From Phycisphaerae bacterium (GTDB lineage Bacteria > Planctomycetota > Phycisphaerae > UBA1845): a DNA stretch of 51,964 nt. The notes beneath the pieces were generated by a model. That model had not been told where the DNA came from. It searched no databases and was given only the letters and a program-made list of their open reading frames with translations. The translations under genes were made by a program, and so were the position numbers. Positions 10,661 to 30,852 of the stretch are shown piece by piece (positions within the stretch are counted from its first letter, which is position 1; every line of letters begins with the position of its first letter). The DNA is taken from positions 1 to 51,964 of the forward strand of contig DASXUA010000637.1 in NCBI GenBank assembly GCA_036505095.1. Direction: 5' to 3'.

Positions 10661-10734
10661 TGGCCGCGATGGGATTCGAACCCACATCTCCATGATCTTG
10701 AATCATGCGCCTCTGCCGATTGGGCTACGCGGCC
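10661..10734 (-). tRNA. tRNA with anticodon CAA (Leu codon UUG), 74 nt, short 5-nt variable loop
   Basis: RNA sense: GGCCGCG TA GCC C AATCGGCAG A GGC G CATGA TTCAAGA TCATG GAGAT GTGGG TTCGAAT CCCAT CGCGGCC A. Perfect 7-bp acceptor, canonical T loop, A73, no encoded CCA. Confidence 0.8.
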
Positions 10735-10737
10735 AAT

Positions 10738-10811
10738 TGGCTGGAGCGGGATTCGAACCCGCACCTGCGGAGGTTTAAGCTCCGTGCCTCTGCCAGTTGG
10801 GCTATCCAGCC
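10738..10811 (-). tRNA. tRNA with anticodon UAA (Leu codons UUA/UUG), 74 nt, short variable loop
   Basis: RNA sense: GGCTGGA TA GCC C AACTGGCAG A GGC A CGGAG CTTAAAC CTCCG CAGGT GCGGG TTCGAAT CCCGC TCCAGCC A. Only 3 nt from the previous tRNA. Confidence 0.8.
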
Positions 10812-10812
10812 T

Positions 10813-10899
10813 TGGGCGGTGGAGGAATCGAACCTCTCGTCGACCACCTCACTTTCTTGGCGACACCGGTTTTACAAACCGGCGTGAGGAGCGCCGCCC
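10813..10899 (-). other. aberrant tRNA-like element (good T arm and acceptor, GUA anticodon-like hairpin, no canonical D arm)
   Basis: RNA sense: GGGCGGC GCTCCTCACG CCGGT TTGTAAA ACCGG TGTCGCCAAGAAAGTGAGGTGGTCGACG AGAGG TTCGATT CCTCC ACCGCCC A. Only 10 nt lie between acceptor and anticodon stem. There is a 28-nt variable region. CCTCAC can pair with GTGAGG across the anticodon hairpin. The true 5' boundary is unresolved (see 10900..10969). Confidence 0.35.
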
Positions 10900-10969
10900 G
10901 ATTGCAAGGCGCGCAAGTTGGGCGTGCTTGGCGCCGGCTGCGCAATCGCCGAAGCACCGCCGCGCGGTC

Positions 10970-11043
10970 TGCGGCCGGAGGGATTCGAACCCTCACACAC
11001 CGGACTCTCAGCCCGGCGGCTTTGCCGTTTTGCCTACGGCCGC
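10970..11043 (-). tRNA. tRNA with anticodon GAG (Leu codons CUC/CUU), 74 nt, short variable loop
   Basis: RNA sense: GCGGCCG TA GGC A AAACGGCA A GCC G CCGGG CTGAGAG TCCGG TGTGT GAGGG TTCGAAT CCCTC CGGCCGC A. Confidence 0.8.
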
Positions 11044-17173: not shown

Positions 17174-17629
17174 TCAGTATAGCTCCGCCATCCACTGGCC
17201 GCCGTGACGTGGGTTGCCCACCAGGCGCTGGTTGACCGGATCGATCCACCAGTCCATTACTTCCAGCGGTACCTGCCCAAGGAGTGGCGGGCAATCGTCC
17301 GGAAGTTCCATCACCTCGCTGATGCAGTCGCGGCCTTCTACCGTAACTCGGACCGGCGAGTAGATCCCCATTGGCGTCAGGCCGTTGGCTGTATTTGTCT
17401 CCTTCGTTCGCAGGAAGCGGAGGCCGAGTTGCGCCACAAATCGCTTCGGAAGGCAGAAATACGTCGCTCCGGAGTCCACCAACGCGCTGATTTCGAGCCG
17501 CCGCACCCGCTCAGGGCCGATCTCGCCCGCCTCACGGCGCACGACATCGTCGTAATTCTCGGCCGTCAGTCGAACGTCAACGCGTCCCACATCGACTCCA
17601 GGCTTCGGCTCAACTGCAGTCATCGTCAT
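17174..17629 (-). CDS. retropepsin-like (clan AA) aspartyl protease
   Basis: 151 aa with ALVDSGATYFCLP (the D-S/T-G-A active-site motif), at the size typical of single-domain bacterial retropepsin-like proteins. Confidence 0.7.
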   Translation of the reverse strand: MTMTAVEPKPGVDVGRVDVRLTAENYDDVVRREAGEIGPERVRRLEISALVDSGATYFCLPKRFVAQLGLRFLRTKETNTANGLTPMGIYSPVRVTVEGRDCISEVMELPDDCPPLLGQVPLEVMDWWIDPVNQRLVGNPRHGGQWMAELY

Positions 17630-17698: not shown

Positions 17699-19735
17699 CT
17701 ATCCGGCGCGGGCGGCGGCGGCGGCCGCGTAGGTTTCGTTGATTTCGTGCTGGCGCGCGGCGGGCGTCTTAACGGCGGATTCGGGATCGGTGGCGATGCC
17801 GCGGGCGACCAGGTCGTCCCAGTGCTTCTCGTTGAAGATGCAGCCGGGGTCGCCGGCGTTCAGGTCGCCGAAATACGCATCGGCGCGGGCGCGGCAGCCG
17901 CCGCAATAGTGCTTGAACTCGCAGACCTCGCAGTGATGCGTGCGGCGGTCGCGGTCGCAGAGCAGTTCCCAGAACTCGTTATGGCGGAAGATGTCGATGA
18001 AATCGCGCTGGCGGATGTTGCCCTGCACGCGGTGCGGCAGGTAGACGCAGGGGGTGATGTTGCCGTTGGGCTCGATCGCGACGTAATCGCGGCCGGCGCC
18101 GCAGCCGCCCAAGTATTTGGCAATGACGCGGGCCTTCTCGCCGCCGCCGCTGCCGGCGTGCGAGCAGGCTTGCTTGCCTTCGGTCGGAGCGTGCGCGACG
18201 CACGTGCGGCCGAACTGCGGCGCCGTGCTGATCACGCCGATCTTGCCGGACTGCATGGCGTTGTTCAGCTTGCGCAGCAGCAACTCGCGCTGCCTGGGGT
18301 TCAGGTCGCCGTCGACCATCTGCAACCCGCGGCCGACCGGGATGAAGTTGAAGTGCGCGAACACGCCGGCGCCGATGTCGACGCAGAAGTCGAGCATGTC
18401 GTCGACTTCGTCGAAGTTGCCCTGGTGCACGCACATCGCCACGCCCAATCGCAACCCTTCCTGCTTGACGACGTTGCGCATGCCGTCGACCGTGCGGTGC
18501 CACATGCCGGGCTGACCCCGGAAGTCGTCGTGGCGATGCGGGTAGACTGAATCGAGGGAGATCTCGACGTAGCGCACGCCTGAATCGGCCAGCTTCTTCG
18601 CCAGCTTGGGCGTCATGGTGCCGCCATGCGTGGCGATGGTCGTGTGGATGCCGTGCGAGTGGCAGCGCTCCAGCACCGGCATCAAATCGGAGGAAATCGT
18701 CGGCTCGCCGCCGGCAAAAGCGATCATCGGCACGTACTGCTCGGCGATCTGATCGACCAGCCGCAGTTTCTCCTCGAGGGTCAGCTCGTCGGGCAGCTTC
18801 TTGTGCTCGGCGTCCTGGTAGCAGTGCTTGCACTTGAGATTGCAGAGGTTCGTAAAGTTCCAGACGATGAACAGGGGGGCCGTGAAGCGCTGCGGCAGCG
18901 TCAGGCCGAACTCGGCCACGCTGCGGGCCGCGATCACCATGCCGCGGATGCTGCTGGCGTGCTCGCCGATGCGCTTGCGGAAGGTCTCGGCCGTCACGCC
19001 GCCCTTCATCTTGTCGATGAACAAGTGGAACGGCCAGTACTTGAGGCGGTGCGTCAGCGGCGCGTCGGGATTCGCATACGACGAGATGATTTCTTCGATC
19101 ATCGTCTTGCCGCTGGCGCGCTTCGTCGAGATATAGCCGAAGATCTTGCGCATGTAGCGCGTGTCGAGCAGATCCTCCAGCGGGTGGTGGTAATCCATGT
19201 CGACGTATTTCTTGCGGACCTGCTTGCGGGCCTGTGGCTCCAGTTTGTCGGGTGCAACCACGCCACGCTTCGATCGAGCGTCGTCGGCATAGATGTGCGA
19301 GTTGGCGTATCCATCTTCGCGGCGGCCCGAAGTCTTGTTGGGATTAGCGGAGATGGCGCCCTCGTGATGATACTGCTTACCAATCTTCGTGGCGGTGGAA
19401 AGCTCGGGCGCCTGAGTACGGCTGTCGTAGCGCGTGGCCTCGCCGCGATAAGCCTCGCGCTTGCCTTTGCGCCGGCCGCCGTCCTTGGTGGTCATCATCA
19501 TGCCGACGTACTGGCTTGAGCCGTACGGCAGGTTGGTGGGATCGGCGAAGACGTCGCCATACTCCTGGATCGAGCCGTGCCCGCCGGACGAGCAGCATCC
19601 GCCGGACGAGGCCTGGTCTGAAATGACTTCGAGCGCGAGGCTCACTCCATGCGACCGGCCCTTGGAATCGACAGCCGGCGCGATGCCGCCCCCGGAAGTC
19701 TCGACGCTCTTGTCCAATCGCAAATCGGCCATCAT
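17699..19735 (-). CDS. radical SAM / SPASM-domain enzyme with ~290-aa N-terminal extension
   Basis: CNLKCKHCY (CxxxCxxC), GGEPT, and a C-terminal Cys-rich SPASM-like region (CGAGRDYVAIEPNGNITPC...HCEVCEFKHYCGGCRA). The N-terminal part is unassigned and contains SSGGCCSSGGHG. Confidence 0.9.
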   Translation of the reverse strand: MMADLRLDKSVETSGGGIAPAVDSKGRSHGVSLALEVISDQASSGGCCSSGGHGSIQEYGDVFADPTNLPYGSSQYVGMMMTTKDGGRRKGKREAYRGEATRYDSRTQAPELSTATKIGKQYHHEGAISANPNKTSGRREDGYANSHIYADDARSKRGVVAPDKLEPQARKQVRKKYVDMDYHHPLEDLLDTRYMRKIFGYISTKRASGKTMIEEIISSYANPDAPLTHRLKYWPFHLFIDKMKGGVTAETFRKRIGEHASSIRGMVIAARSVAEFGLTLPQRFTAPLFIVWNFTNLCNLKCKHCYQDAEHKKLPDELTLEEKLRLVDQIAEQYVPMIAFAGGEPTISSDLMPVLERCHSHGIHTTIATHGGTMTPKLAKKLADSGVRYVEISLDSVYPHRHDDFRGQPGMWHRTVDGMRNVVKQEGLRLGVAMCVHQGNFDEVDDMLDFCVDIGAGVFAHFNFIPVGRGLQMVDGDLNPRQRELLLRKLNNAMQSGKIGVISTAPQFGRTCVAHAPTEGKQACSHAGSGGGEKARVIAKYLGGCGAGRDYVAIEPNGNITPCVYLPHRVQGNIRQRDFIDIFRHNEFWELLCDRDRRTHHCEVCEFKHYCGGCRARADAYFGDLNAGDPGCIFNEKHWDDLVARGIATDPESAVKTPAARQHEINETYAAAAAARAG

Positions 19736-19859
19736 CGCACCTCGTTTATGTCCCCGATAACACGGACTGACCGAGTGTCACTCGGTTTTTGGCGGCGTTT
19801 CGCGCCAGCGACGCCGCCCAACCGCCGATTCGCCGCACGCGTTCAGCTCTCGGAGTCGC

Positions 19860-20216
19860 TCACGGCTGAACCGAGGCGCCCGAGAGGGCGCGCGCACTCT
19901 GCTCGACCGCCCATTCGAATCCCTTTACAATCTCGTAGATGGCAGCCGTCTCATATAAGGCATCGCACAACACGTCATCCGGATACCGTTCCGAACTCTG
20001 AGACAAGAGAGCCGTAACCTGTCCAGCGATGACGTGCTGCAGCTCATTGACGCCTTGGAATTTCTGAACACGACGATCTGCGGACATTGCGGGGCTCGCA
20101 AGTGGATAGGCATCGCGGCCACACACCGTCAGGTTGTTTGCGAGCCGCGCCAGAAACTCTGCCTGATCTTGCACGGGGCTGCGGGCATAAAGGGATTTGA
20201 ATTCGTCAGAGGTCAT
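19860..20216 (-). CDS. hypothetical protein (downstream member of a 2-gene cassette)
   Basis: 118 aa. The start overlaps the upstream stop (ATGA at 20213-20216). No family recognised. Confidence 0.5.
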   Translation of the reverse strand: MTSDEFKSLYARSPVQDQAEFLARLANNLTVCGRDAYPLASPAMSADRRVQKFQGVNELQHVIAGQVTALLSQSSERYPDDVLCDALYETAAIYEIVKGFEWAVEQSARALSGASVQP

Positions 20217-20470
20217 ACCGCATCCTCATCAGTATAAGACTGGCGAAGGAGCGAGTCCACGTCGACGCCACGCTGCTTCAGGATGAATACGCGAGTATTG
20301 CCCTGCATGACCGTACCGTCCGGCTTGACGCGTAACGGCTCGAACTCGCTGCCCTCTCGCAATGACTCAATGATCTCCTCCGTGCTCTTTGGCTCCCAGA
20401 AATCGAAGCTCGATTGCCGCATTGAACTGCGCGGGTGAATGACGCGGAGCGGAGGAAGTTGATCAGCCAC
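20213..20470 (-). CDS. hypothetical protein (upstream member of a 2-gene cassette)
   Basis: 85 aa. Contains LRVKPDGTVMQGNTRVFILKQRG. No confident family. Confidence 0.5.
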   Translation of the reverse strand: MADQLPPLRVIHPRSSMRQSSFDFWEPKSTEEIIESLREGSEFEPLRVKPDGTVMQGNTRVFILKQRGVDVDSLLRQSYTDEDAV

Positions 20471-20539
20471 GTTGCAGTATCCAGGCGTTCGTTCTCCTTA
20501 CTTACTCCTCGGTTCCTCAGAGCCTCTGAGTCCCGCTCG

Positions 20540-22672
20540 TCAATGACATCCGCACCCGCTGCCGCAGCCGCCGTTACCGTTCGCGCCTTTGGGCTTCATC
20601 GCGCCTGCGGCCAAAATCGGCAACATCAGCTTGTTCTCGACTCGCCCGCCGACCCACTGTTCGTTTTCATCATCCTGCGTGCCAAAGCGATTGGCCCATG
20701 GCATGACCGCGTTCGGGTGACTCGACGGTCGCAGCGCGATCATCGGGTTCTCGGCCTGCCACTCGGGATTGGCCATCGCATACATCCGCTCGATGTAATG
20801 CCGGTAGCTCGGGCCGCTGTTGATCGTGCAGAAGGGGTAGATCCCATCGGGCGTCGAATACTGAATCACGCAGCGGCGGACGCGCTCCACGTCGTAGTTG
20901 TAGCGGTCCATGAAGTGCATACCGGCCGCCATGAGAGTTTTGTACGATTTCTTCTCGCCCGCGCCGCGGCCCTGCTCCTTGTTGGTCAGGCCCTGAAGCG
21001 CGCGAATGAAGGTGAACGGCGAAATGCGCTTGTCATATTCCTTCCAGCGATAGCTCTTCAGGAATGTGGCGAGCATGGTCAGCTTATCGAAGCCGTTCGC
21101 CAGATCGCGCTTGGCCTTGATCTTCTTGTGCAGCTCATTGAAACCGCCGAACAGCTTGGCCACATCGAACAGCTTGGGAATGGGAATGGCCTCGTGCTCG
21201 GGCGTCACGAAGAAATAGGTGCCGAAGGCGCAGTCGCTGTGGCAGCTCGGCCGGATTTTGGGCTTGCCATCTAGAAGCTCCATGACGCGCGACATGGGCG
21301 TCAGGAACGAGAGCGGGAAAAAGTCCCGGTGCGGATCGGCCCCCGAGCAGTTGGCGATATCGTGCGCCAAGTCGCCGAGCGTGTAGCGTTTCTTGTCCAG
21401 ATCGCGCTTATTGATGCGGCCCGTGAATACCACCGGCTGATAGCTAATGGCGCTAATTGCATCCGAGTGCTCGACAGCGAACTTGAATATCTTGGCGACC
21501 TGGTCGTCGTTGAAGCCTTTGATGATAGTCGGCACGAGGCAGATCTTCAGGCCCGTCTTCTTGCAGTTCTCGATGGCTTTGAGTTTCTTTTCGAGCAGCG
21601 GCTCGGCGCGGACCTTCTTGTAGATGCGATCGTCGAGGCCATCGAACTGCAAGTAGAGGGTGTGCAGCCCGGCCTCGGCCGAGCGCTCGGCGAACTCCAG
21701 GTTCGCGTGCGTGATGCCGTTGGTGGCAATCTGCACATGCGTGAAGCCCATCTCATTTGTCTTACGGACAATCCGGTGGAACTCCGGATGGATCGTCGGT
21801 TCACCGCCGGTGAACTGCACGGCCGTCGAGGGATACGGATGCTGCTCGCGCAACGCTTGCAGCATCTCGACCACCATCTCAAACGACGGCTCGGACACAT
21901 AGCCGGCCGTATTGGCACAGGCGAAGCACACCGGGCAAGTCAGGTTGCAGCGGTTGGTGAGATCGACCTGCGCCAAACACGACGTCGAGATGTGCTGATT
22001 GCAAAGACCGCAGTCGGACGGGCAGGAATGCGCCTTGTCGATCTGCGGGTCGTACACGCCGCGCTCATCCTCGAAGATGCTGCGCGTGCTCTTGATGTAC
22101 AACCGCGCATCGGTCGAAATGCGGTCCCGGAAGTAGCCGTGCTCCGGACACGTTTTCTCGATGTAAACCGTGTTCTCTTTTACGTAGTAGCGGCCCAGGA
22201 TGTTGCACGAGCACTCCGGACAGAGTGTCTCAACTGTCTTGGGCAGGTTTTTTACGACCGGCCGGATGATGAAGCCCTTGTAGGTGCGCTTAGGTTGATG
22301 CTCCGTGTAGCCCGGCTTGTTCTTGACGAACAGCACGTCCTCATGCCGCTCGCGATACGCACCACAAACGGGGCAGGCGAATTCCAGGTAGATTGCGTCT
22401 TCGTCGCGGTCGTAGACATAGCGGGACGGAACGGTGTTGTCGCACTTGATGCAATGCGACTGGCATTCCCACGGAAGCCCCTTGATCCCCTTCTGCACCG
22501 GAGCGTATTTGCGGAGCGACAGCTTATAGGCTTCTAACTCGGTCCTGGCCGTGTCGCTGGTCACGGCCCGGCGGCGGATACGATGGATGGGCCGGACCAG
22601 ATTTCCGGAATGCGAGCCGGCCGGATCGCTGGGATCGATCCGGGTCTCGATCGGTGCGGAAGGTTGGATCAC
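20540..22672 (-). CDS. radical SAM enzyme of the Tes / GDGT-MAS (MJ0619, COG1964) type
   Basis: GTG start. CPECSCNILGRYYVKENTVYIEKTCPEHGYF matches the rubredoxin-like N-terminal module of this family. It is preceded by a second similar module, CIKCDN...ACPVCG. Then VDLTNRCNLTCPVCFA (radical SAM) and FTGGEPT. The C-terminus ends GNGGCGSGCGCH. Confidence 0.85.
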   Translation of the reverse strand: MIQPSAPIETRIDPSDPAGSHSGNLVRPIHRIRRRAVTSDTARTELEAYKLSLRKYAPVQKGIKGLPWECQSHCIKCDNTVPSRYVYDRDEDAIYLEFACPVCGAYRERHEDVLFVKNKPGYTEHQPKRTYKGFIIRPVVKNLPKTVETLCPECSCNILGRYYVKENTVYIEKTCPEHGYFRDRISTDARLYIKSTRSIFEDERGVYDPQIDKAHSCPSDCGLCNQHISTSCLAQVDLTNRCNLTCPVCFACANTAGYVSEPSFEMVVEMLQALREQHPYPSTAVQFTGGEPTIHPEFHRIVRKTNEMGFTHVQIATNGITHANLEFAERSAEAGLHTLYLQFDGLDDRIYKKVRAEPLLEKKLKAIENCKKTGLKICLVPTIIKGFNDDQVAKIFKFAVEHSDAISAISYQPVVFTGRINKRDLDKKRYTLGDLAHDIANCSGADPHRDFFPLSFLTPMSRVMELLDGKPKIRPSCHSDCAFGTYFFVTPEHEAIPIPKLFDVAKLFGGFNELHKKIKAKRDLANGFDKLTMLATFLKSYRWKEYDKRISPFTFIRALQGLTNKEQGRGAGEKKSYKTLMAAGMHFMDRYNYDVERVRRCVIQYSTPDGIYPFCTINSGPSYRHYIERMYAMANPEWQAENPMIALRPSSHPNAVMPWANRFGTQDDENEQWVGGRVENKLMLPILAAGAMKPKGANGNGGCGSGCGCH

Positions 22673-22716
22673 AAAAACGCCTCCTTCCTGGTGCGTCGCC
22701 GCGGGGGCCGACGCTA

Positions 22717-23010
22717 TTACGCTGGCACATAGGGTGCCAGCAGTTCATCTATTTGTGATTCGTCCAGCACGTCTCCCGCGTTGAGCCGCTGCACGATACT
22801 GTCGATGATACCTTTCGCATCGCGTGCCCGGTGATTGGTGATGAAGCCGTCGTAAAGGTGCTCCCCCTCCATGGCGCGCGCGATCTCGAATTCTTTATTA
22901 TGCTCGGTCAACTCCGTGAAGTAGACCACGCGCACCTTCCGGCCGTAGTCCGCCTCGCGGTAGATCTCGAACATGATCTTGTCCGATTCGGCCATGCTTC
23001 TTTCAGACAC
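22717..23010 (-). CDS. small acidic hypothetical protein between the PlsA-like and Tes-like genes
   Basis: 97 aa from GTG 23010 (92 aa from ATG 22995). No family recognised. Co-oriented, 44 nt upstream of the Tes-like gene. Confidence 0.55.
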   Translation of the reverse strand: MSERSMAESDKIMFEIYREADYGRKVRVVYFTELTEHNKEFEIARAMEGEHLYDGFITNHRARDAKGIIDSIVQRLNAGDVLDESQIDELLAPYVPA

Positions 23011-23150
23011 AGGACGCTGAGTCGCAGAGGAAGGCGTTAATAAGCTTTCTCGCGGCTTGCTCCGACTCTGGGTTCGCCTGGTCTTGCCCGACCGCGCCTC
23101 ACATCAGGCAGTGCTCCGCTCCAGTCCAGCCGGAGTTTACCCGATCCGCC

Positions 23151-26100
23151 TTACACCGTCACCAGCATGGCGCCATCTTCAATGGTAGACTCGGACCGCC
23201 AGCGCTCGGATAGCTCGGTGAGCTTGGCCTCGATCTCCGCCCGCTTGGCGTGCTCCCGTACCATCCGCTCGCGGTAGCGCTTCAAGAAGTAGGCAATGGT
23301 CTCAATGCGGATGCGGATCGAGCCGGTTGGCTTGTTCTCGTCGATGTCTTTGAAGCAGAAATAGGGCGTGCCGCTGCGCTCGATGATCTCCTCGATGTTC
23401 GAGTAGATCGGTGCATCGTGCCCGCACTTGAAGCTGCTCAACTCCAGCGCCACCAGGTTCGGATGCCGGGCGGTATACTTGGCGGCCCACATCTTGCGGC
23501 TGGTGTTCTCGGAGTAGCTGTTCTTCCAGACGTCCTCGACCGAGAGCGGCGACTTGAATTCTCCGGCGGCCACTTCGGCCCCGAACAGCCGCTCCAGGAT
23601 ATCGTCGTCGATGGGCAATGTATCCTGCCAGAAGATCGGATAGCCGAGCTTCTGCAGCTCTTCGCAAATCTCGTGGTTAACGCCCGGGTCGTTGTGGTAA
23701 GGCCGGGCGAGCACGACCACGCCCATCCGCTGCTCGCGCTCGAGCTGATCGAGAATCTCGCGCGCCTGCCGCCGCAGCTTGCTCTCGAACGCCTGCAGCG
23801 CCTTGAGTCCCTGTTTTGTGGCCCGATATGATTCTTCGGGCGAGAGGCCTAACTCGTCTTTCCAGTCGTCGTACATCTGCTTGGCGCACAGTTCGGCTTT
23901 GTCCATGTTCAGGAAGGTCTTCTTGAAGACGATGCCCTTCTGCTTGAACAGGTCGCCCTCTTTGACAAAGGCAGCGTGCGTCGCTTCGGTCGTCGAGACG
24001 ACCGTCGGGCAGGCGCGGCTGTCCTGCACGTTGTGCAGGAAGGTCGGGAACGAATCGACCATGGGGAAGAAGATGTGCGTCAGCGGCTTTTTCTCATGCT
24101 GCACGTAGAGCAGGTCGTGCACATGCGGGATGCCCAGTTTGCTCGGGAAGCACGGGTCGATGCTGCCGCGCTTGGCGCCGCGCTTGTACAGCTCCGTGCT
24201 GGTGTACTCGCTGAACACCAGATTGCGGTGCGGGAGCCCCAGGCTCTGGAAGAAGCCCAGGAAGAACGGCGACTGCCCGTACATATTGAGCACGCGCGGG
24301 AAGCCGATCCGCAATTCCTTACGCCGCTCCATGAGCGCCCGACGCGCGTCAGAACCCCCCCCGTCGCAGATCCGCCGTGGCGGGCTAGTGGGGGGTGACG
24401 TGTGCGCGCTGCCGGTATCAGCGCGCGAAGCACACCCGCCCTTGGCAGGGCGGGTTTTGAACAGCCGCGCCCATCGGGAAAGCTGCGGCAGCGGATCAGA
24501 TACGTCCTCGACCTGAACCTCCTTGAAGGCCTCGTGGGCCGCCACCGCCAGCAGGTTCGGATTGGCTTTCTTGACCGCGTCGAGACCGCTCTTGATGTCG
24601 CGCATGTCGTTGATGTCTTCGACTGTGCCCTTCTCGCAGGTGGCGATGATCAGCCGTTGCTCGCCTTCCTGCAGCGGCACCTTGGACTTGCTCTTGGTTG
24701 AAGCCTTCTTCATCAACTCCTTGGCCTCGGCCGCTGGATCGACAGCTTGGGGGGCGGGCATCCCACCTGCCGGCGCGCTAACCACGCCCAGGCTGACCAA
24801 AACGCCATCGGCCTTGTCCGGCTGCGCGTCGCCGGTCTTAACGTCGATGAACGTCCGCAGGCACTTGTTCTTGCAGAAATAGCAGCGCGTCGACTCCTCG
24901 CGCGTGGTGCGGTATTGGATCTTTCCCACCCGATCCAACCCGATGAATGTTGTCTTCAGGCCGCACTCGTTCCACAACCGCTGCGCCTCGATCGCACAGC
25001 CAATCGCGCCGCTCTCGCCGCAGTGCTTGTGCACGATCACTTGCGGAGTAACGCCCGTGCCGACGAAACGCGATTCGATGAAATCGACCTGCGACTTGAC
25101 CGCGGCCAGGTTATGCTGCGTGCCGCCTTGCAGGACGAACTTCGTGCCGAGCTTGGCCAGGTTCGGAATCTGCGAGACGTACAGCCAGATGTTCTTGGGC
25201 AGCACGGCCGCCAGCCCGGCCATGATCTCGTTCGGCTGCCAACCTTGGCGCTGGAAATCGACGATGTCCGACTGCATGAAGACCGCGCAGCCGTAGCCGA
25301 ACTCCGGCATGGCCTGCGCGCTGAACGCGATGTCGGCATAGTCGTGCACGTCGAACCCGAAGCCGGTGGCCGTCGATTGCAGGAAATAGCCGTTGCCCGC
25401 GCTGCACTGCGTATTGAGCTTGAAATCCTTGACGCTGCCGTTCCGCAGGATGATCAGCTTGATGTCCTGCCCGCCGACATCGACGATCACGTCCGTGCCG
25501 GGGTAGAAGTGCAGCCCGGCCTCGGTGTGCGCCACCGTCTCGACCAGCCCCACGTCCGCCTTCAGCACGTCCTTCAGAATGTCCTTGGCGTAGCCCGTTG
25601 TGCCCACGCCGAGAACCTTCAGCGTACAGCCCTGCTCGGTGATTTGCTTCTCCAGGGCGCCGCAGATGTCCATCGTGTCTTCGATGGGGTTGCCCTTGGA
25701 GAGCTGATACGATTTGGCGATGACGTTTTTGTCCTTGTCGACCAGCACACCTTTGCTGGAGGTCGAGCCGCCGTCCAGCCCGAGGAACGCCTCGACGAGC
25801 GTGCCGGGCGCGAACTTTGCCGGCGCCCACGGCTCTTTCTTGTAGCGGTCCTTGAAGTGACTCAGCTCATCGGGGTCCTTGACTAAACCCTTCGCTCCGG
25901 CCGCCGCTTTGTCGGCCGCCCGCCCGTGCTCGATGTACCACTTCAGGCGATCCATTCCGTGGTACACGCCCAGATTCGGATCATCGTCAATCTCACCCTT
26001 GGCGAATTCGACCACACCGATAGCCGCGAAGTACTGCGCGTTCTCCGGAGTGATGACGTAATCCTCCGGAGACTTGCTGGCATCCGGAATTTCGACGCCG

Positions 26101-27071
26101 CGCTCTTTCCACATGGCTGGAATGTTGTGCTTCCAGCAGTCGCGCATGCCTTTGATGTAGCAGTTCGGCCCGCCGAGCAGCAATACGGTCGGCTTGAGCG
26201 TGTGCCCGCGTGTCAGCACCGAGAGGTTCTGCTGGATGATCGACTCGAACAGGCTGGCCATCAGCTCGTCGGGCGCCACGCCGGTTTTCTGCAGGCCGTT
26301 GATGTCGGTCTCGGCGAACACGCCGCACTTGCCCGCAACCGGGTGCAGCTTCAGGCCCTTGTATCCCATATTGCAAAGCTGATCGGCCGGAATCTTCAGC
26401 TTGGCGTTGATCTTATCGATGACCGCGCCCGTTCCGCCGGCACACTTGTCATTCATCGACGGGATTTTCTTTTTCTTCCCCGTCTCCTCGTCGGGCTTGA
26501 AGACGATGATCTTGGCGTCCTGCCCGCCCAGTTCGATGACGCTCTGCACCTCGGGGTAGAACTTTTCGACCGCCAGCGCGACGGCGTTGACCTCCTGAAC
26601 AAACTTGCCGCCGATGTGCTTGATCAGCCCCGATCCGCCGGAGCCGGTGATGAAGAGGCGGAACGAATTGGTGGGCACATCGGGGAATTCCTGCTCAATG
26701 CGCGTGAGGAACTCGATGCACTTCTCGGGCTGCTTGGTGTCGTGCCGCTGATAATCCTTCCAGAGGATTTCGTCGGTGAGCGGATTGATCACGACGGCCT
26801 TGACCGTCGTCGAGCCTACGTCGAGGCCGATCATCAGCCCTTGGGCGTACTTCTCGGTCCCGGCGAACGGCTCAACGACCGTGGTCGGTCGGTTCGCATC
26901 CGCCGTCGCCTTCGCCCCAACGGAGATGTTGAGCTGCACGGCCTTGAGCGCCGCATCTTTCGGCTCACCCTTGCCCCCGGAGCCGCAGCACCCACCGCCG
27001 CCCGATCCACACGATCCGTGATCCGCGTCGAAGTATTTGTTCAGCATCCGTATCTGTTCCCCGCGCCTCAA
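23151..27071 (-). CDS. PlsA-like BCR/HAD-family fusion: two BcrA/BadF/HgdC-type ATPase (activase) modules plus dehydratase-like (DUF2229-type) module
   Basis: 1306 aa. Two actin-fold ATPase modules (GLDVGSTTVKAV...ELGGQDAKII...KCAGGTGAVID and GLDGGSTSSKGV...DVGGQDIKLI...QCSAGNGYFLQ). The C-terminal region has RIGFPRVLNMYGQSPFFLGFF...DPCFPSKL. The N-terminus carries HGSCGSGGGGCCGSGG. The start may be ATG 27047. Confidence 0.88.
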   Translation of the reverse strand: MRRGEQIRMLNKYFDADHGSCGSGGGGCCGSGGKGEPKDAALKAVQLNISVGAKATADANRPTTVVEPFAGTEKYAQGLMIGLDVGSTTVKAVVINPLTDEILWKDYQRHDTKQPEKCIEFLTRIEQEFPDVPTNSFRLFITGSGGSGLIKHIGGKFVQEVNAVALAVEKFYPEVQSVIELGGQDAKIIVFKPDEETGKKKKIPSMNDKCAGGTGAVIDKINAKLKIPADQLCNMGYKGLKLHPVAGKCGVFAETDINGLQKTGVAPDELMASLFESIIQQNLSVLTRGHTLKPTVLLLGGPNCYIKGMRDCWKHNIPAMWKERGVEIPDASKSPEDYVITPENAQYFAAIGVVEFAKGEIDDDPNLGVYHGMDRLKWYIEHGRAADKAAAGAKGLVKDPDELSHFKDRYKKEPWAPAKFAPGTLVEAFLGLDGGSTSSKGVLVDKDKNVIAKSYQLSKGNPIEDTMDICGALEKQITEQGCTLKVLGVGTTGYAKDILKDVLKADVGLVETVAHTEAGLHFYPGTDVIVDVGGQDIKLIILRNGSVKDFKLNTQCSAGNGYFLQSTATGFGFDVHDYADIAFSAQAMPEFGYGCAVFMQSDIVDFQRQGWQPNEIMAGLAAVLPKNIWLYVSQIPNLAKLGTKFVLQGGTQHNLAAVKSQVDFIESRFVGTGVTPQVIVHKHCGESGAIGCAIEAQRLWNECGLKTTFIGLDRVGKIQYRTTREESTRCYFCKNKCLRTFIDVKTGDAQPDKADGVLVSLGVVSAPAGGMPAPQAVDPAAEAKELMKKASTKSKSKVPLQEGEQRLIIATCEKGTVEDINDMRDIKSGLDAVKKANPNLLAVAAHEAFKEVQVEDVSDPLPQLSRWARLFKTRPAKGGCASRADTGSAHTSPPTSPPRRICDGGGSDARRALMERRKELRIGFPRVLNMYGQSPFFLGFFQSLGLPHRNLVFSEYTSTELYKRGAKRGSIDPCFPSKLGIPHVHDLLYVQHEKKPLTHIFFPMVDSFPTFLHNVQDSRACPTVVSTTEATHAAFVKEGDLFKQKGIVFKKTFLNMDKAELCAKQMYDDWKDELGLSPEESYRATKQGLKALQAFESKLRRQAREILDQLEREQRMGVVVLARPYHNDPGVNHEICEELQKLGYPIFWQDTLPIDDDILERLFGAEVAAGEFKSPLSVEDVWKNSYSENTSRKMWAAKYTARHPNLVALELSSFKCGHDAPIYSNIEEIIERSGTPYFCFKDIDENKPTGSIRIRIETIAYFLKRYRERMVREHAKRAEIEAKLTELSERWRSESTIEDGAMLVTV

Positions 27072-27163
27072 ACCGCGCCGCGAACCGATTGGCGTTGCGC
27101 CGCGCTTGGTTGGCTACATACATGCGGAAGTATCATCGTCCACCACCGCGCCGCGCAAACAAC

Positions 27164-27409
27164 TCACGCCGCTGCCACAGACGATGCGTTCTGAATTGCG
27201 ATCGTCGGGTTCGGGTTCAACGCCGGTACCGGCAACTTGCGCCCACTCAGCAGCGCCACATGCTCTTTCATTCCCCATTTCGCCTTGTAAAGGCAGTCCT
27301 CGACGGAATGCCCGACGCCGGTAAATCCTTCGAGTTCCGGAGAATAAAAGCTGAAGAAATCCGGCTCCTCGGTCGCCTCGATCACCAATGAATACGGAAG
27401 GTCGATCAT
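27164..27409 (-). CDS. hicB: HicB-family antitoxin (N-terminal domain only)
   Basis: 81 aa. YSLVIEATEEPDFFSFYSPELEGFTGVGHSVEDCLYKAKWGMKEHV fits the UPF0150/HicB fold pattern. No DNA-binding tail. Confidence 0.7.
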   Translation of the reverse strand: MIDLPYSLVIEATEEPDFFSFYSPELEGFTGVGHSVEDCLYKAKWGMKEHVALLSGRKLPVPALNPNPTIAIQNASSVAAA

Positions 27410-27421
27410 GATCTGGGCCCA

Positions 27422-27631
27422 TCACTCTTTGATGCCCGCGGCCTTCAAGATCGCGTGGCAGGTCCCGGTGGGAACCTCCTTCGATCCATGATAGTCTACG
27501 CGGATCAACGTGTGCCAGTTCGCCTTCGCATAGTAACGGATCGAGCCCTTCTCTTTCACCTTGGCGAAGCCGCTGGTCTCCAGCAATCGGACCAACTCGC
27601 TGAACTTCAAAGCTCTTTCCTGTTCAATCAC
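27422..27631 (-). CDS. hicA: HicA-family toxin-like protein
   Basis: ORF 27422..27700 trimmed to GTG 27631. KFSELVRLLETSGFAKVKEKGSIRYY...VDYHGSKEVPTGTCHAILKAAGI fits the HicA pattern, but the usual GSH reads GSI. GTG overlaps the upstream TGA as GTGA (27628-27631). Confidence 0.7.
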   Translation of the reverse strand: MIEQERALKFSELVRLLETSGFAKVKEKGSIRYYAKANWHTLIRVDYHGSKEVPTGTCHAILKAAGIKE

Positions 27632-29436
27632 GCCGCGCCGACCAACTCCGCCGCATCCTCCTCGACTGCATTCGGGGAATGAACCTTCGGCGCTGACCAC
27701 TTTCGATCGTGATCCATCATCTCGCCGACCATCAGGATGAAATTCGCAGCGCGACCGACGATGCCCTCATGATGCTCGATGTGCTGCAGCGGGCGGCGCA
27801 GTTCGCGGTGCCCGGCGATGTAGTCGCGAATCTGCTGCAGCGAGTAGCCCGTCCGCGCCATCGCGGCCTTGAACTCGGCCTTGCATTTGAATTTGGCCTC
27901 GCCCAGCGCCATCTGCGTACGCGAGTGGGCGTTGATGTCGCCTTCGCCGCTGGTCTCGATCGGCAGGAAGATCATGTCCGGATAATTCGCCATGACCGCC
28001 GACTGCGCCCCGTCCGATTGCGTGGAGGGCATGCAGCCGAACGGTTTGAGCGACAGCACCATGTGCGCCAGGCCTTTGGCCGAGTAATAGATGTTCTTGG
28101 CCACTTCCAGGTGCCCCTCGCCGCCGCCCGAGCGCGAGTTGTAGTACGGATGGCCCATGCGCACGAGTTCGAGTTGGTTGACCAGTTCATGCGCTGTGCC
28201 TCCCAGCGCGTGCCGCAGCCGGTCGTACTCACGTTTGATGATCTTGCCGGCCAGGGTGAACGACATCATCTTCTTGCGGAATGCCAACTCACGATCGAGG
28301 CGCGCCTTCAGGCCGCGCTGCTCGCTGGGGATTTCACCCTCGGCTTCATGCAGATCGCGAGTCTTCATCTTGGCCTGATTGAGCATGTAGGCGATCCATG
28401 TCGCGATCGGCTCGACCAGCACTTCGGCGCCCTCGCCTTCCAGGAACGGGAACATGTTGAAGTTCCCGTCGCCCTCGGTGGTCTGCGCCCAGAACTCGCC
28501 GGTGATCTTCACGATCGGCTTGGGACGCGTATAGTCGACCTCGATCTCGTTGATCAGCCGCGCGCATTCCTCAAACACGGAGGTGTAATAGTCGCCCCGG
28601 AGCTGGTCCAGGAACTTCTGCGCATCGTCGCCGCTCTTGAGCGGCGTCACCTTCGCGAGCAGCGTGGCCAAGCGCCCGCCATGAACCTGGTCGTAGCTCT
28701 TCTCTTTAAGGCACTTCTGGCATAGCTCGACGCACTTAGCGAATACTTCATTCGTCTTGCCCGGCACGACCTCGTAAGGCCGGATGTGATACGCGACCTC
28801 GTTGAGCAGATCGCCCATGAACATGCCGTTGACCAGGCTCAGGAAGAAGTTCAGATTGAACTCGAACCCGGCCTCGAAATCGCTCTGATCGAGCCCGCCG
28901 CCTTGCTGGAACAGCAACACGCGGAAGCCGTCGAACCCGCTGTTACGCAGCGCGAGCCGATACTCGGCCTCGTACATTCCGAAGCGGCATGGCCCGCACG
29001 CACCGGCCGTGATGAACACGAATTTGTCGAGAATCTCCTTCGTCTGCATCCCCTGCTTGTCACGCAGGTCGCGCAGGTAATTGACCAGCGCACCGACGGT
29101 GAAATACGTGGGGTTGCACTGTCCGTTATTGCCGAATTCCTTGCCAGCCTGAAAGTCGGCTTTGCGCGCCGTGGGCACCAGCGCGACTTTGTAGCCCAGG
29201 CCCTCCAGCGCGGACAGCAGCAGCAGCTCGTGCCGCATGGTCAATCCGCCAAACAGGACCGTCGTATACTCGCGCTCCTGCTTGGTGAAGGGCCGCTCCT
29301 TGGGGCGTCTGAAATGGCTCGGCCGACCCACGCTCAGCCCCGCCTCGTGCAGCAGCCGCTCGCGCTCCTCGGCCAGTCGTTGCTGAAACAAGGGAAGGGA
29401 AACAGTCGTTCCGCTCACTTCTTGAGTTGCTTGCAT
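27628..29436 (-). CDS. PlsR-like BCR/HAD-family (acyl-CoA dehydratase activase-related) protein
   Basis: 602 aa. TVLFGGLT..HELLL..ALEGLGYKV..GNNGQCNPTYFTVGAL..ITAGACGPCRFGMYE is typical of the 2-hydroxyacyl-CoA dehydratase-related partners of activase fusions. Confidence 0.85.
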   Translation of the reverse strand: MQATQEVSGTTVSLPLFQQRLAEERERLLHEAGLSVGRPSHFRRPKERPFTKQEREYTTVLFGGLTMRHELLLLSALEGLGYKVALVPTARKADFQAGKEFGNNGQCNPTYFTVGALVNYLRDLRDKQGMQTKEILDKFVFITAGACGPCRFGMYEAEYRLALRNSGFDGFRVLLFQQGGGLDQSDFEAGFEFNLNFFLSLVNGMFMGDLLNEVAYHIRPYEVVPGKTNEVFAKCVELCQKCLKEKSYDQVHGGRLATLLAKVTPLKSGDDAQKFLDQLRGDYYTSVFEECARLINEIEVDYTRPKPIVKITGEFWAQTTEGDGNFNMFPFLEGEGAEVLVEPIATWIAYMLNQAKMKTRDLHEAEGEIPSEQRGLKARLDRELAFRKKMMSFTLAGKIIKREYDRLRHALGGTAHELVNQLELVRMGHPYYNSRSGGGEGHLEVAKNIYYSAKGLAHMVLSLKPFGCMPSTQSDGAQSAVMANYPDMIFLPIETSGEGDINAHSRTQMALGEAKFKCKAEFKAAMARTGYSLQQIRDYIAGHRELRRPLQHIEHHEGIVGRAANFILMVGEMMDHDRKWSAPKVHSPNAVEEDAAELVGAA

Positions 29437-29895
29437 CGGTTACTTTCCTCGCGATTCGCGCCCGACCCGCACCGTACCGCGCCAACGGCAGTGTGCGCTC
29501 TTGAGGTTCGGGAGCACTTTCGGGTTTGGTAACTCCGTGTTGGCAACCAGCGTGCCAGAGCGGTATTCGTGTATCGTGGGTTGTCCGGATGCTAATCTAT
29601 GCTCCGATAACGATTTACGATTTACCGACTGCCGGTCGCCAGGTGCTGAAAAGAGCATTTCAGCCTTTGCCTTGTCTCAATCTTGAGCGCCAGTCAGATG
29701 CTAAGAAACGTAGCATCATTATTATCAACTACTTAGAACGCTGTTTGGCTCATTTGTGGTGTTGAGCGTAATTGAAACATGTTCCCGCCGAACACGCTGC
29801 ACTGCCATCTGCTCAACCGCGGTAAGTCCTGACGGTACAATGTTCCGCTGCCGAAGCTGACCGCCGCGTTCGCTCGGCTCGAAACTCTAGCAGAG
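29437..29895. promoter_or_regulatory. divergent, comparatively AT-rich intergenic control region
   Basis: 459 nt between divergent starts 29436 (-) and 29896 (+). Two 7-bp inverted repeats: gctgaaa-N6-tttcagc (29645-29664) and gatgcta-N7-tagcatc (29697-29717). No promoter assigned. Confidence 0.3.
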
Positions 29896-30852
29896 GTGCT
29901 AAGCATGTTACAAGCTCGCCAGGGCAATCTGCCAATCCCAATTCTGACTGCCGTCAGCCTCGGACTGCTTTGGCCGACCGGCCGCTTGTCCGCGCAAGAG
30001 GTTCAACGGGACGAAAAGGCAGAATCCAGGCCGGAGCGTCAGCGGGTGCGCGACCAGGATGAACTCGAACGGCCGGATTTCTTGCCGCCCAACGTACCGT
30101 ATCCCGGGCTCCCACGTCGGAACATCTACCGTGGGTCACAAACGCTGCGCCCCTTCGCCACCTATCCATATCGCTATGGCTGGGACCAACCGTACGACGA
30201 GAACGACTACTTGGATTACCGCTACGGGGGATCGGTTACGGCCGATGCCTACGAACAAGGGTATCGCGATGGCTATCGCGACGGGCGCCGGGCGGAGCAG
30301 TTCGAGCGCGCGTACGAAATGGGCCGCGCATCGTATCAGGATGCGCTGCACGACGGCCTGGGCGCATTCCGCGACGGCGATTACGGCGAGGCCGCGCGGC
30401 AGTTCCTGCTGGCAACCGAACTGCATCAAGGCGATCCAGTCAGTCGCTTGCACGCCACTCACGCGCTAACAGCTCAGGGTCGCTATGCCGAAGCGGTGCA
30501 GATGCTACGCCGCGCCGTGCAACTTCAGCCCAAGATCGTTTTCCTTGCGGCCGACATCCGCCGCGAATACGGCCGCGAGCAGGATTTGCCGGAGCATCTG
30601 CACGAGCTCGAGCAGGCTGCGCAGCAAGCCGAGAACGATGCGGACCTATGGCTGCTGCTTGGGTACTACCAGTTCTATTCCGAGCATCGCGCCGCGGCTT
30701 TGAAGTCCTTCTCGCGCGCCGCGGAGGTGACCGGTCCGGATTCCGTCATCGATCGGTTCCTGGATGCGGGGCGCGCCTCGGTTCCTCCGGCCGGCAGTAC
30801 TCCGGCGCGCCATTCAGATGTGAGCGGGCGCGCCAAATCAGCCAAGCCGTGA
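29896..30852 (+). CDS. secreted TPR-like protein
   Basis: 318 aa. Signal-like N-terminus (PILTAVSLGLLWPTGRLSAQE), a Y/D/R-rich segment, then TPR-like helices. Confidence 0.65.
   Translation: MLSMLQARQGNLPIPILTAVSLGLLWPTGRLSAQEVQRDEKAESRPERQRVRDQDELERPDFLPPNVPYPGLPRRNIYRGSQTLRPFATYPYRYGWDQPYDENDYLDYRYGGSVTADAYEQGYRDGYRDGRRAEQFERAYEMGRASYQDALHDGLGAFRDGDYGEAARQFLLATELHQGDPVSRLHATHALTAQGRYAEAVQMLRRAVQLQPKIVFLAADIRREYGREQDLPEHLHELEQAAQQAENDADLWLLLGYYQFYSEHRAAALKSFSRAAEVTGPDSVIDRFLDAGRASVPPAGSTPARHSDVSGRAKSAKP

Follow-up and report, generated by a model that had tools for sequence, protein, structure and literature searches.

A candidate membrane-lipid gene cluster in a Phycisphaerae bacterium combines a PlsA/PlsR-like reductase, a Tes homologue and a Gms-like radical SAM enzyme

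A candidate lipid cluster on a Phycisphaerae contig

The contig DASXUA010000637.1, from the metagenome-assembled genome (MAG) of a marine-type planctomycete of the Phycisphaerae, a stretch of 51,964 bp that was analysed at its full length and is called the window here, carries on its minus strand (29436..17699) a string of genes that we read as a candidate membrane-lipid cluster. The string encodes a two-gene reductase of PlsA/PlsR/Ger architecture (p602 and p1306, named after their lengths in amino acids), a homologue of the tetraether lipid synthase Tes (710 aa) and a second radical S-adenosylmethionine (SAM) enzyme that resembles Gms (p678). Each protein belongs to its family or architecture, and the linkage of the genes is conserved in relatives. 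Our favoured reading, to which we assign a probability of roughly 55%, is a cluster of three modules, in which the reductase would convert esters to ethers, Tes would couple lipid tails and the Gms-like enzyme would form bridges between chains. From there we infer the substrates, the order of the steps, the nature of the products, be they tetraesters or tetraethers and branched or unbranched, and a lipid role for this particular reductase type, which is termed BBD1.

A first-pass annotation of this DNA had listed five co-oriented minus-strand ORFs, namely p602, p1306, a 97-aa ORF (p97), the 710-aa protein and p678. All five are confirmed as real, on that strand and at the coordinates given below. 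The list had overlooked four small co-oriented genes that lie within the string.

Branched glycerol dialkyl glycerol tetraethers, or brGDGTs, rank among the terrestrial and lacustrine proxies used most for palaeotemperature and pH, and their producers and biosynthetic genes are only partly known. Bacterial Tes homologues have been named as brGDGT candidates (PMC8941075), and a pathway PlsAR - Tes - GrsA/B was proposed in 2022 for Solibacter usitatus (Halamka et al., PMC10087280). Mss and Ger were validated in Thermotoga (PMC13159169), and homologues of Tes, GrsA, Ger, Mss and Gms were described in Black Sea Phycisphaerae MAGs in 2025 (PMC11868695).

The 710-aa protein belongs to the Tes family

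The 710-aa protein (tes, 20540..22672, minus strand) scores 482.1 bits against the NCBIfam equivalog model "tetraether lipid synthase Tes" (NF045702, cut-off 450), and the match spans model positions 3-484 of 486. The next best model, TrsS, yields 303 bits, far under its cut-off of 490. The crystallised GDGT-MAS of M. jannaschii (7TOL) could be aligned to query residues 140-640 over positions 18-513 of its 526-residue chain (E 3e-107). Domain searches revealed Radical_SAM (PF04055) and Zn_ribbon_HMPTM (PF23545, E 2.9e-14, residues 144-186). The radical SAM CxxxCxxC motif reads CNLTCPVC, with C242, C246 and C249, and also conserved are a CPxDCGLC motif, the ribbon cysteines C151, C154 and C175 and a C-terminal cysteine. 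Five related proteins at other loci, some of them beside other reductase types, pass the Tes cut-off too, and the window Tes is 59-62% identical to Tes of Acidobacteriota-labelled MAGs. By these profiles the protein is a Tes-family member, with a predicted tail-coupling activity. The first-pass assignment to the MJ0619/Tes family of radical SAM proteins therefore stands, since the curated cut-off is passed and the protein aligns to GDGT-MAS.

With archaeal Tes/GDGT-MAS the window protein has in common the family as defined by the curated hidden Markov model, a near full-length alignment, the CxxxCxxC motif, a rubredoxin-like N-terminal ribbon and the C-terminal cysteine. It differs in its bacterial host, in an N-terminus longer by about 140 residues, which include a second, four-cysteine ribbon-like copy, and in a Gly/Cys-rich C-terminal tail that is confined to the window clade. 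The window Tes would presumably act on fatty-acyl or alkyl lipids and not on archaeol. The second zinc-ribbon-like copy (C74, C77, C100 and C103; residues ~70-105, window 22360-22460) lies upstream of the PF23545 ribbon, and tblastn matches in Planctomycetota- and Acidobacteriota-labelled Tes loci begin at query residues 2-22, spanning this region. The C-terminal tail, which ends in GGCGSGCGCH, was found only in the closest relatives; the corresponding low-complexity run at 20543-20581 (minus strand) is a feature of the window clade only. An intein in the Tes of relatives was considered for matches of 3.1 kb (loci L010 and L014-L017 of the scan described below) and rejected, because these consist of Tes plus cross-matching of the adjacent gms-like gene.

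A bacterial Tes homologue might instead carry out other radical SAM chemistry, TrsS-like or pterin-methylase-like, in a cluster that has nothing to do with lipids. The activity of bacterial Tes is unvalidated (PMC11868695), some homologues carry the JGI name "7,8-dihydro-6-hydroxymethylpterin dimethyltransferase", and the TrsS model, too, gives 303 bits. We nevertheless regard this as highly improbable. It is the Tes model that is passed, TrsS staying far under 490, the GDGT-MAS match spans the whole enzyme, and linked genes of Gms-like and Ger-like type are in keeping with lipid chemistry. Furthermore, Tes tracks iso-diabolic tetraesters or brGDGTs in Acidobacteria cultures, as related second-hand in a passage of PMC13023045.

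p1306 and p602 show the architecture of PlsA/PlsR and Ger

p1306 (23151..27071, minus strand) probably starts at 27047, as in the public gene calls (1298 aa). Pfam and NCBIfam searches support an Act1-Act2-Red1, PlsA-like protein of the BBD1 type: two BcrAD_BadFG domains (PF01869, E 1.8e-66) are followed by DUF2229 (PF09989, E 5e-45, residues 921-1151). The second ATPase module aligns to HadI (4EHT) and HgdC (1HUX) with E ~3e-20 and keeps both conserved cysteines, and the first has equivalent motifs with cysteines at C210 and C249. The ATPase modules also match the benzoyl-CoA reductase (BCR) subunits MbdP/Q. A Gly/Cys/Ser-rich low-complexity run is present at the N-terminus (26976-27020, minus strand), and every BBD1 orthologue has one.

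p602 (27628..29436, minus strand) had no sequence match in Pfam, NCBIfam or the PDB. Its place as a Red2/PlsR-like subunit of a reductase of the BCR/2-hydroxyacyl-CoA dehydratase (HAD) type is indicated by fold, profile and alignment. The AlphaFold2 model (pLDDT 75) retrieved in the Foldseek top 20 of the PDB nothing but catalytic subunits of BCR, HAD and double-cubane cluster proteins (DCCP): MbdO/N, HadB/C of 2-hydroxyisocaproyl-CoA dehydratase, DCCP and BzdNO. Probabilities were mostly 0.8-1.0 (lowest 0.60, 9g87_A), with E 5e-4 to 0.1, TM scores of 0.3-0.45 and ~10% identity. HHalign places p602 with RED2, a reductase family linked to tes in other planctomycetes (98.6% probability, E 7.5e-16), with three cysteine motifs in common. 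An alignment of 34 family members contains six invariant cysteines. The family is large, as all 8000 of the 8000 scored candidates pass E 0.001 and the best 120 are 65-77% identical. At BBD1 orthologues with 63-75% identity to p1306, a p602 orthologue always adjoins. The domain content that had been given for p1306, the 710-aa protein and p678 can be kept, with the provision that the label "dehydratase-related" for p602 is backed by fold and profile evidence only.

The third gene of this group encodes p97 (22717..23010, minus strand; 92 aa as called), a small conserved protein with no family match. Orthologues stand behind BBD1 in L004 (55%), L006 (45%), L089 (58%) and L090 (62%). In every case p97 comes after BBD1, whether tes lies alongside or not.

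PlsA/PlsR is laid out as Act1-Act2-Red1-Red2 (PMC12838417); from the cited texts and gene sizes we take PlsA to be Act1-Act2-Red1 and PlsR to be Red2. Ger is a fusion of PlsA and PlsR; in Pfam terms it shows BBD, to which small pieces of H and D are added (PMC13159169; bioRxiv 10.64898/2026.06.23.733905). For T. maritima Ger, an HGD-D signal (PF06050) is reported in the C-terminal part. A fused planctomycete protein of 1511 aa (L048) represents a large family of 1430-1510-aa proteins with PF01869 and PF09989, most of them with a faint PF06050; we call them Ger-type by the architecture reported for Ger (PMC13159169). p1306 aligns to residues ~30-1050 of these proteins with 25-29% identity and p602 to residues ~1050-1460 with 22-24% identity (E 1e-20 to 1e-26). 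The window pair is therefore collinear with a Ger/PlsAR-type enzyme, although divergent, split and reversed in order.

Like PlsA/PlsR of C. perfringens and Ger of T. maritima and D. alkenivorans, the window reductase combines two BcrAD_BadFG domains and DUF2229 with a second reduction/dehydration module. In contrast to them it is split into two genes with the Red2-like gene first, amounts to ~1900 aa in total compared with ~1400-1500, and has a linker of ~230 aa, a Gly/Cys/Ser-rich N-terminus and no HGD-D Pfam signal. The comparison supports a PlsA/PlsR/Ger architecture for p1306 and p602, unlike that of the dehydratases of amino-acid fermentation. The first-pass description of the pair as PlsA/PlsR-like is borne out by the two ATPases, DUF2229 and the second subunit of BCR/HAD fold.

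We give hardly any weight to a role of these proteins in fermentative or aromatic metabolism, as a system of 2-hydroxyacyl-CoA dehydratase or aryl-CoA reductase with its activator. It is true that p602 bears the NCBI name "activator of (R)-2-hydroxyglutaryl-CoA dehydratase", that the ATPases match HgdC, HadI and MbdP/Q, and that the p602 fold matches HadB/C and MbdO/N. The Foldseek matches have, however, only ~10% identity and TM scores of 0.3-0.45. Classical 2-hydroxyacyl-CoA dehydratases and class I benzoyl-CoA reductases have separate activators or ATPase subunits of ~260 aa and HGD-D-type alpha/beta subunits in a CoA-ester pathway context, whereas here both ATPases are fused to DUF2229 in one chain of 1.3 kaa and HGD-D gave no match. 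No CoA-transferase, acyl-CoA dehydrogenase, ferredoxin or aromatic-ring genes were found among the Pfam-scanned window ORFs, a scan that covered part of the ORFs and in which several large ones gave no match. The conserved neighbours are tes and gms.

p678 is most likely a Gms homologue

p678 (gms-like, 17699..19735, minus strand, 678 aa) has Radical_SAM (PF04055) and SPASM (PF13186) domains, with an AhbD/NirJ-like core at residues 290-636. The best NCBIfam models are NirJ2 (243 bits), AhbD (217 bits) and TIGR04053, every one of them under its cut-off. An exhaustive search returned many homologues of 470-510 aa, whose alignment starts at about query residue 185 and thus includes ~100 residues ahead of the core. 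One cluster of these homologues is from Aigarchaeota; on the same contig, a gene for a B12-binding radical SAM protein lies 1.3 kb upstream, which is the archaeal gms-gmm/grs pattern.

Gms was described as an AhbD-like radical SAM-SPASM enzyme with an N-terminal extension of ~100 aa (COG4001) that makes a C-C bridge between chains, and tes-gms clusters in Planctomycetes were reported in the same study (Garcia et al., 2024; PMC11214058). p678 matches this description in its core and in the position directly after tes that such genes have in many Planctomycetota, and its conserved region ahead of the core, shared with the 470-510-aa homologues, may correspond to the N-terminal extension. Orthologues with 59-78% identity directly follow tes at 12 loci of the reference scan and in L088-L090; in L093, a Radical_SAM/SPASM gene that stands after tes and a 273-aa ORF matches p678 by Pfam domains only. 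Compared with the extension of Gms this region is longer: the core is preceded by ~285 aa, with conservation over ~100-185 aa, and in the window a pair of small ORFs intervenes between tes and the gms-like gene. Most likely, judged by these features, p678 is a homologue of Gms, the bridge-forming glycerol monoalkyl glycerol tetraether (GMGT) synthase.

The first-pass annotation had seen in p678 a possible ring or methyl modifier. GrsA/B and Gmm carry a B12-binding domain (PMC13459092), and Pfam and NCBIfam found no such domain in p678 or in the other window ORFs scanned. Because this domain is missing, a Grs-type ring synthase or Gmm-type methylase is ruled out, and the protein fits Gms instead.

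Several further observations concern the gms-like genes and their surroundings. A Gly/Cys/Ser-rich run near the N-terminus of p678 (~19574-19609, minus strand) occurs in this genome only. Such runs number only five in all six frames of the window, and two of the five lie in the reading frames of p1306, Tes and p678. In L007 (1900-2500) the spacer between tes and gms contains a duplicated sequence of ~200 bp, which may be a small repeat element. Downstream of gms in L088, L089, L090 and L093 we found genes for a LAB_N-domain protein, a GT2 glycosyltransferase and ClpX, a set that the window lacks and that may represent a head-group glycosylation step linked to the cluster.

Reductases of BBD architecture adjoin tes in many planctomycetes

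The Tes protein was scanned against one genome per GTDB species, which yielded 80 loci. About 50 of these are planctomycete Tes with 52-74% identity, and the remaining matches in Clostridia and Desulfovibrionaceae (29-40%) are other family members. MAG loci were limited to ±10 kb, and identities are those of the best tblastn or blastp segments. Among the 36 planctomycete loci where 4.5 kb or more of sequence precede tes, 25 have a reductase of BBD architecture upstream of tes: 23 with BBD2 and RED2, one fused and one BBD1. In 23 of the 25 the reductase lies within ~250 bp of tes; in L025 and L049 the distance is 3-3.4 kb, with other genes between.

BBD2 is a protein of ~1050-1150 aa with two BcrAD_BadFG domains and DUF2229, and RED2 (431 aa), with a weak DUF2229 signal in four of eight members, comes next, ahead of tes. 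Identity to the fused Ger-type family is 39-43% for BBD2 and 33-36% for RED2; BBD2 is 26-29% identical to p1306 and RED2 21-23% to p602. In a Sedimentisphaerales MAG 9 bp separate the fused gene from the tes downstream of it, whose product passes the cut-off. A further protein of the fused family is encoded with no tes in its vicinity, and faint PF06050 was seen in fused planctomycete relatives. The order BBD2-RED2-tes-gms is found in L034.

The order of the window, p602-BBD1-p97-tes(-gms), recurs in L006 of the reference scan and in L089 and L090, where Tes is 74-81% identical. Because these are independent MAGs, the string is not a product of chance or an oddity of assembly. This BBD1-tes form is rare (four MAGs). 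In a rough neighbour-joining tree of Tes, calculated without support values, deep as well as crown branches include loci with BBD2 or fused linkage, and the window clade is distinct and has BBD1 instead. The rough tree suggests that this clade swapped in another reductase paralogue beside tes. In L042 and L045, labelled Acidobacteria/Acidobacteriota, Tes nests inside the planctomycete BBD2-type Tes clade, which suggests horizontal transfer or mis-binning.

Synteny in relatives had been proposed as a check by the first-pass annotation, and the reductase-tes linkage was indeed found in other planctomycetes. Together, the family, architecture and synteny analyses place the 710-aa protein in Tes, set the reductase pair apart from the fermentation dehydratases and show the genes side by side in relatives, so that none of the bioinformatic outcomes named at the time as speaking against the proposal was observed.

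Small inserted genes and surroundings of the string

Intergenic gaps in the ten-gene string range from -7 to 155 bp. Between p602 and p1306 lies a hicA toxin gene (27425..27634, minus strand; PF07927, E 2.2e-11), which overlaps the p602 stop by 7 bp. It is followed after 15 bp by a called gene for an 81-aa protein (27164..27409, minus strand), presumed from its position, and in our own reading, to be a HicB-like antitoxin. Between tes and the gms-like gene two further ORFs were called by JGI, of 69 aa (20213..20422, minus strand) and 118 aa (19860..20216, minus strand), which overlap by 4 bp. No family match was obtained for the 81-, 69- and 118-aa proteins. The hicA/81-aa insert is absent from L004 at the corresponding position and from L090, where a cut p602 homologue stands directly before BBD1; L003 and L005 have other small ORFs between the p602 and BBD1 orthologues. 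In the closest relatives L089 and L090 the 69/118-aa pair is absent and gms adjoins tes, and toxin-antitoxin-like inserts are missing from both. The 69/118-aa pair has the look of another toxin-antitoxin-like insertion within this operon.

A promoter/terminator scan, which performed at shuffle level, detected no terminator-like site on the minus strand at 16.5-30.5 kb. GC content dips to 0.59-0.60 at 20001-24000 and 26001-30000, compared with 0.62-0.66 in most of the contig, and the dips coincide with the tes/p97 and the p602/HicA region. Downstream of the gms-like gene, where the relatives have the LAB_N, GT2 and ClpX genes, the window encodes a retropepsin-like aspartyl protease (17174-17629). 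The 20 flanking ORFs that were scanned contained no further lipid genes. Rfam found no riboswitch or other RNA element in the window except three consecutive tRNA genes at 10.6-11.0 kb (10661-11043, minus strand).

Discussion

We propose that the string 29436..17699 (minus strand) may be a membrane-lipid remodelling cluster with three modules. p602 and p1306, with p97, would make up an iron-sulfur reductase of BCR/HAD type that has two chains and depends on ATP. In such an enzyme a single bridging [4Fe-4S] cluster would be bound by the two fused HgdC-like ATPase modules, and ATP would drive a low-potential electron into the catalytic pair of DUF2229 (Red1) and p602 (Red2). With a glycerol-bound acyl ester as substrate, reduction by this pair would yield a vinyl or alkyl ether. 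By radical SAM chemistry Tes would join two lipid tails at their omega-ends, giving a membrane-spanning chain, and the Gms-like enzyme would add a C-C bridge between spanning chains, giving an H-shaped brGMGT-type lipid. The assignments of Tes and Gms follow from family membership and published precedent. That of the reductase follows from its architecture, from the repeated linkage to tes irrespective of architecture, and from the presence of the other paralogue where BBD2 is missing beside tes.

Several points weigh against this reading. Among bacterial homologues of Tes and Gms, none is reported to have been validated by experiment (PMC11868695; bioRxiv 10.64898/2026.06.23.733905). The identity of BBD1 to the Ger-type fused proteins is only 25-29% for p1306 and 22-24% for p602, and HGD-D (PF06050) had no match in either protein even at E up to 10. 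BBD1 orthologues (64-75%) with their p602 orthologue occur with no tes within 10 kb in the Phycisphaerae loci L003, L004 and L005, and the close relatives L088 and L093 have tes-gms-LAB_N-GT2 with no reductase nearby. Co-transcription of the string is suggested by spacing only, and two inserted gene pairs interrupt it. Because BBD1 is a divergent paralogue that is also found away from tes, an action of this reductase on lipids or in ether formation is put forward here as a conditional part of the scheme. The first-pass annotation was right about the architecture behind the ester-to-ether step and overstated the step itself, given the divergence of BBD1 (~27%/22% to Ger-type) and its occurrence apart from tes.

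These points lead to the question whether only tes and the gms-like gene form a lipid module, with p602-p1306-p97 as a bystander, that is, a widely conserved ATP-dependent Phycisphaerae reductase with a different substrate. The BBD1 pairs away from tes in L003, L004 and L005, the tes-gms pairs kept without BBD1 in L088 and L093, the large and highly conserved p602 family, the other paralogue (BBD2 and RED2, or fused) as tes neighbour in most Planctomycetota, and the position of BBD1 as most divergent from Ger-type proteins would all agree with a bystander. However, the adjacency is maintained in four independent MAGs across 74-81% Tes identity, and the lineage that has no BBD2 at tes has a paralogue of the same architecture there, which, in a genome with thousands of genes, would make random rearrangement an unlikely cause. 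Only the Tes of this clade gained a Gly/Cys-rich tail like that of every BBD1. Moreover, a PlsA/Ger-type enzyme would be expected without tes too; ether lipids need no spanning lipids, and BBD1 without tes therefore does not discriminate between a lipid and a bystander role. We consider a bystander reductase less likely and favour the three-module lipid cluster.

The closest published counterpart is the brGDGT proposal for Solibacter usitatus (PMC10087280), which has the same enzyme families for ester-to-ether conversion and tail coupling. In that case the genes co-occur in a genome, whereas in the window they are physically linked; the third enzyme here is Gms-like and not Grs, and the host is a planctomycete. 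The Mss and Ger route of Thermotogales and Bacillota (PMC13159169, PMC13274423) likewise pairs a radical SAM tail coupler with an ester reductase of BCR/HAD type, but the coupling enzyme in the window is Tes-type and not Mss. The pathway idea and the genome-level co-occurrence of Tes and PlsAR are already published. The novelty that had first been claimed for the locus was hence too broad, in view of the reports on Tes with PlsAR (and Grs), on Phycisphaerae homologues and on tes-gms clusters (PMC10087280, PMC11868695, PMC11214058). None of the papers returned by full-text searches, subscription journals not being covered, describes a PlsA/Ger-like gene that is physically linked with tes, and a literature search for lipid reports on cultured Phycisphaerae gave nothing relevant. 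We regard as new, and as moderately novel, the reductase-tes synteny pattern across planctomycetes, more than this one contig. The overall interpretation of the first-pass annotation is thereby upheld for Tes, for the BCR/HAD architecture and for synteny, and given up for the ring or methyl role and the broad novelty.

As a tentative generalisation, Planctomycetota might share a conserved operon "ester reductase - tes (- gms)" with three interchangeable architectures of the reductase, namely fused, BBD2+RED2 and BBD1. If this is true, it would tie ester-to-ether conversion physically and genetically to the coupling of tails, the first such link in bacteria, it would make anaerobic Phycisphaerae producers of brGDGT/brGMGT-type lipids, and it would provide a set of three to four genes to rebuild a bacterial tetraether pathway in a heterologous host. 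Scoring Ger as present or absent by counts of homologues merges at least three distinct reductase types, and the reductase-tes linkage would single out candidates among the many BBD-type paralogues. The linkage would also support a route of reductase and Tes independently of culture correlations, and would point to the abundant Planctomycetota of anoxic zones as sources.

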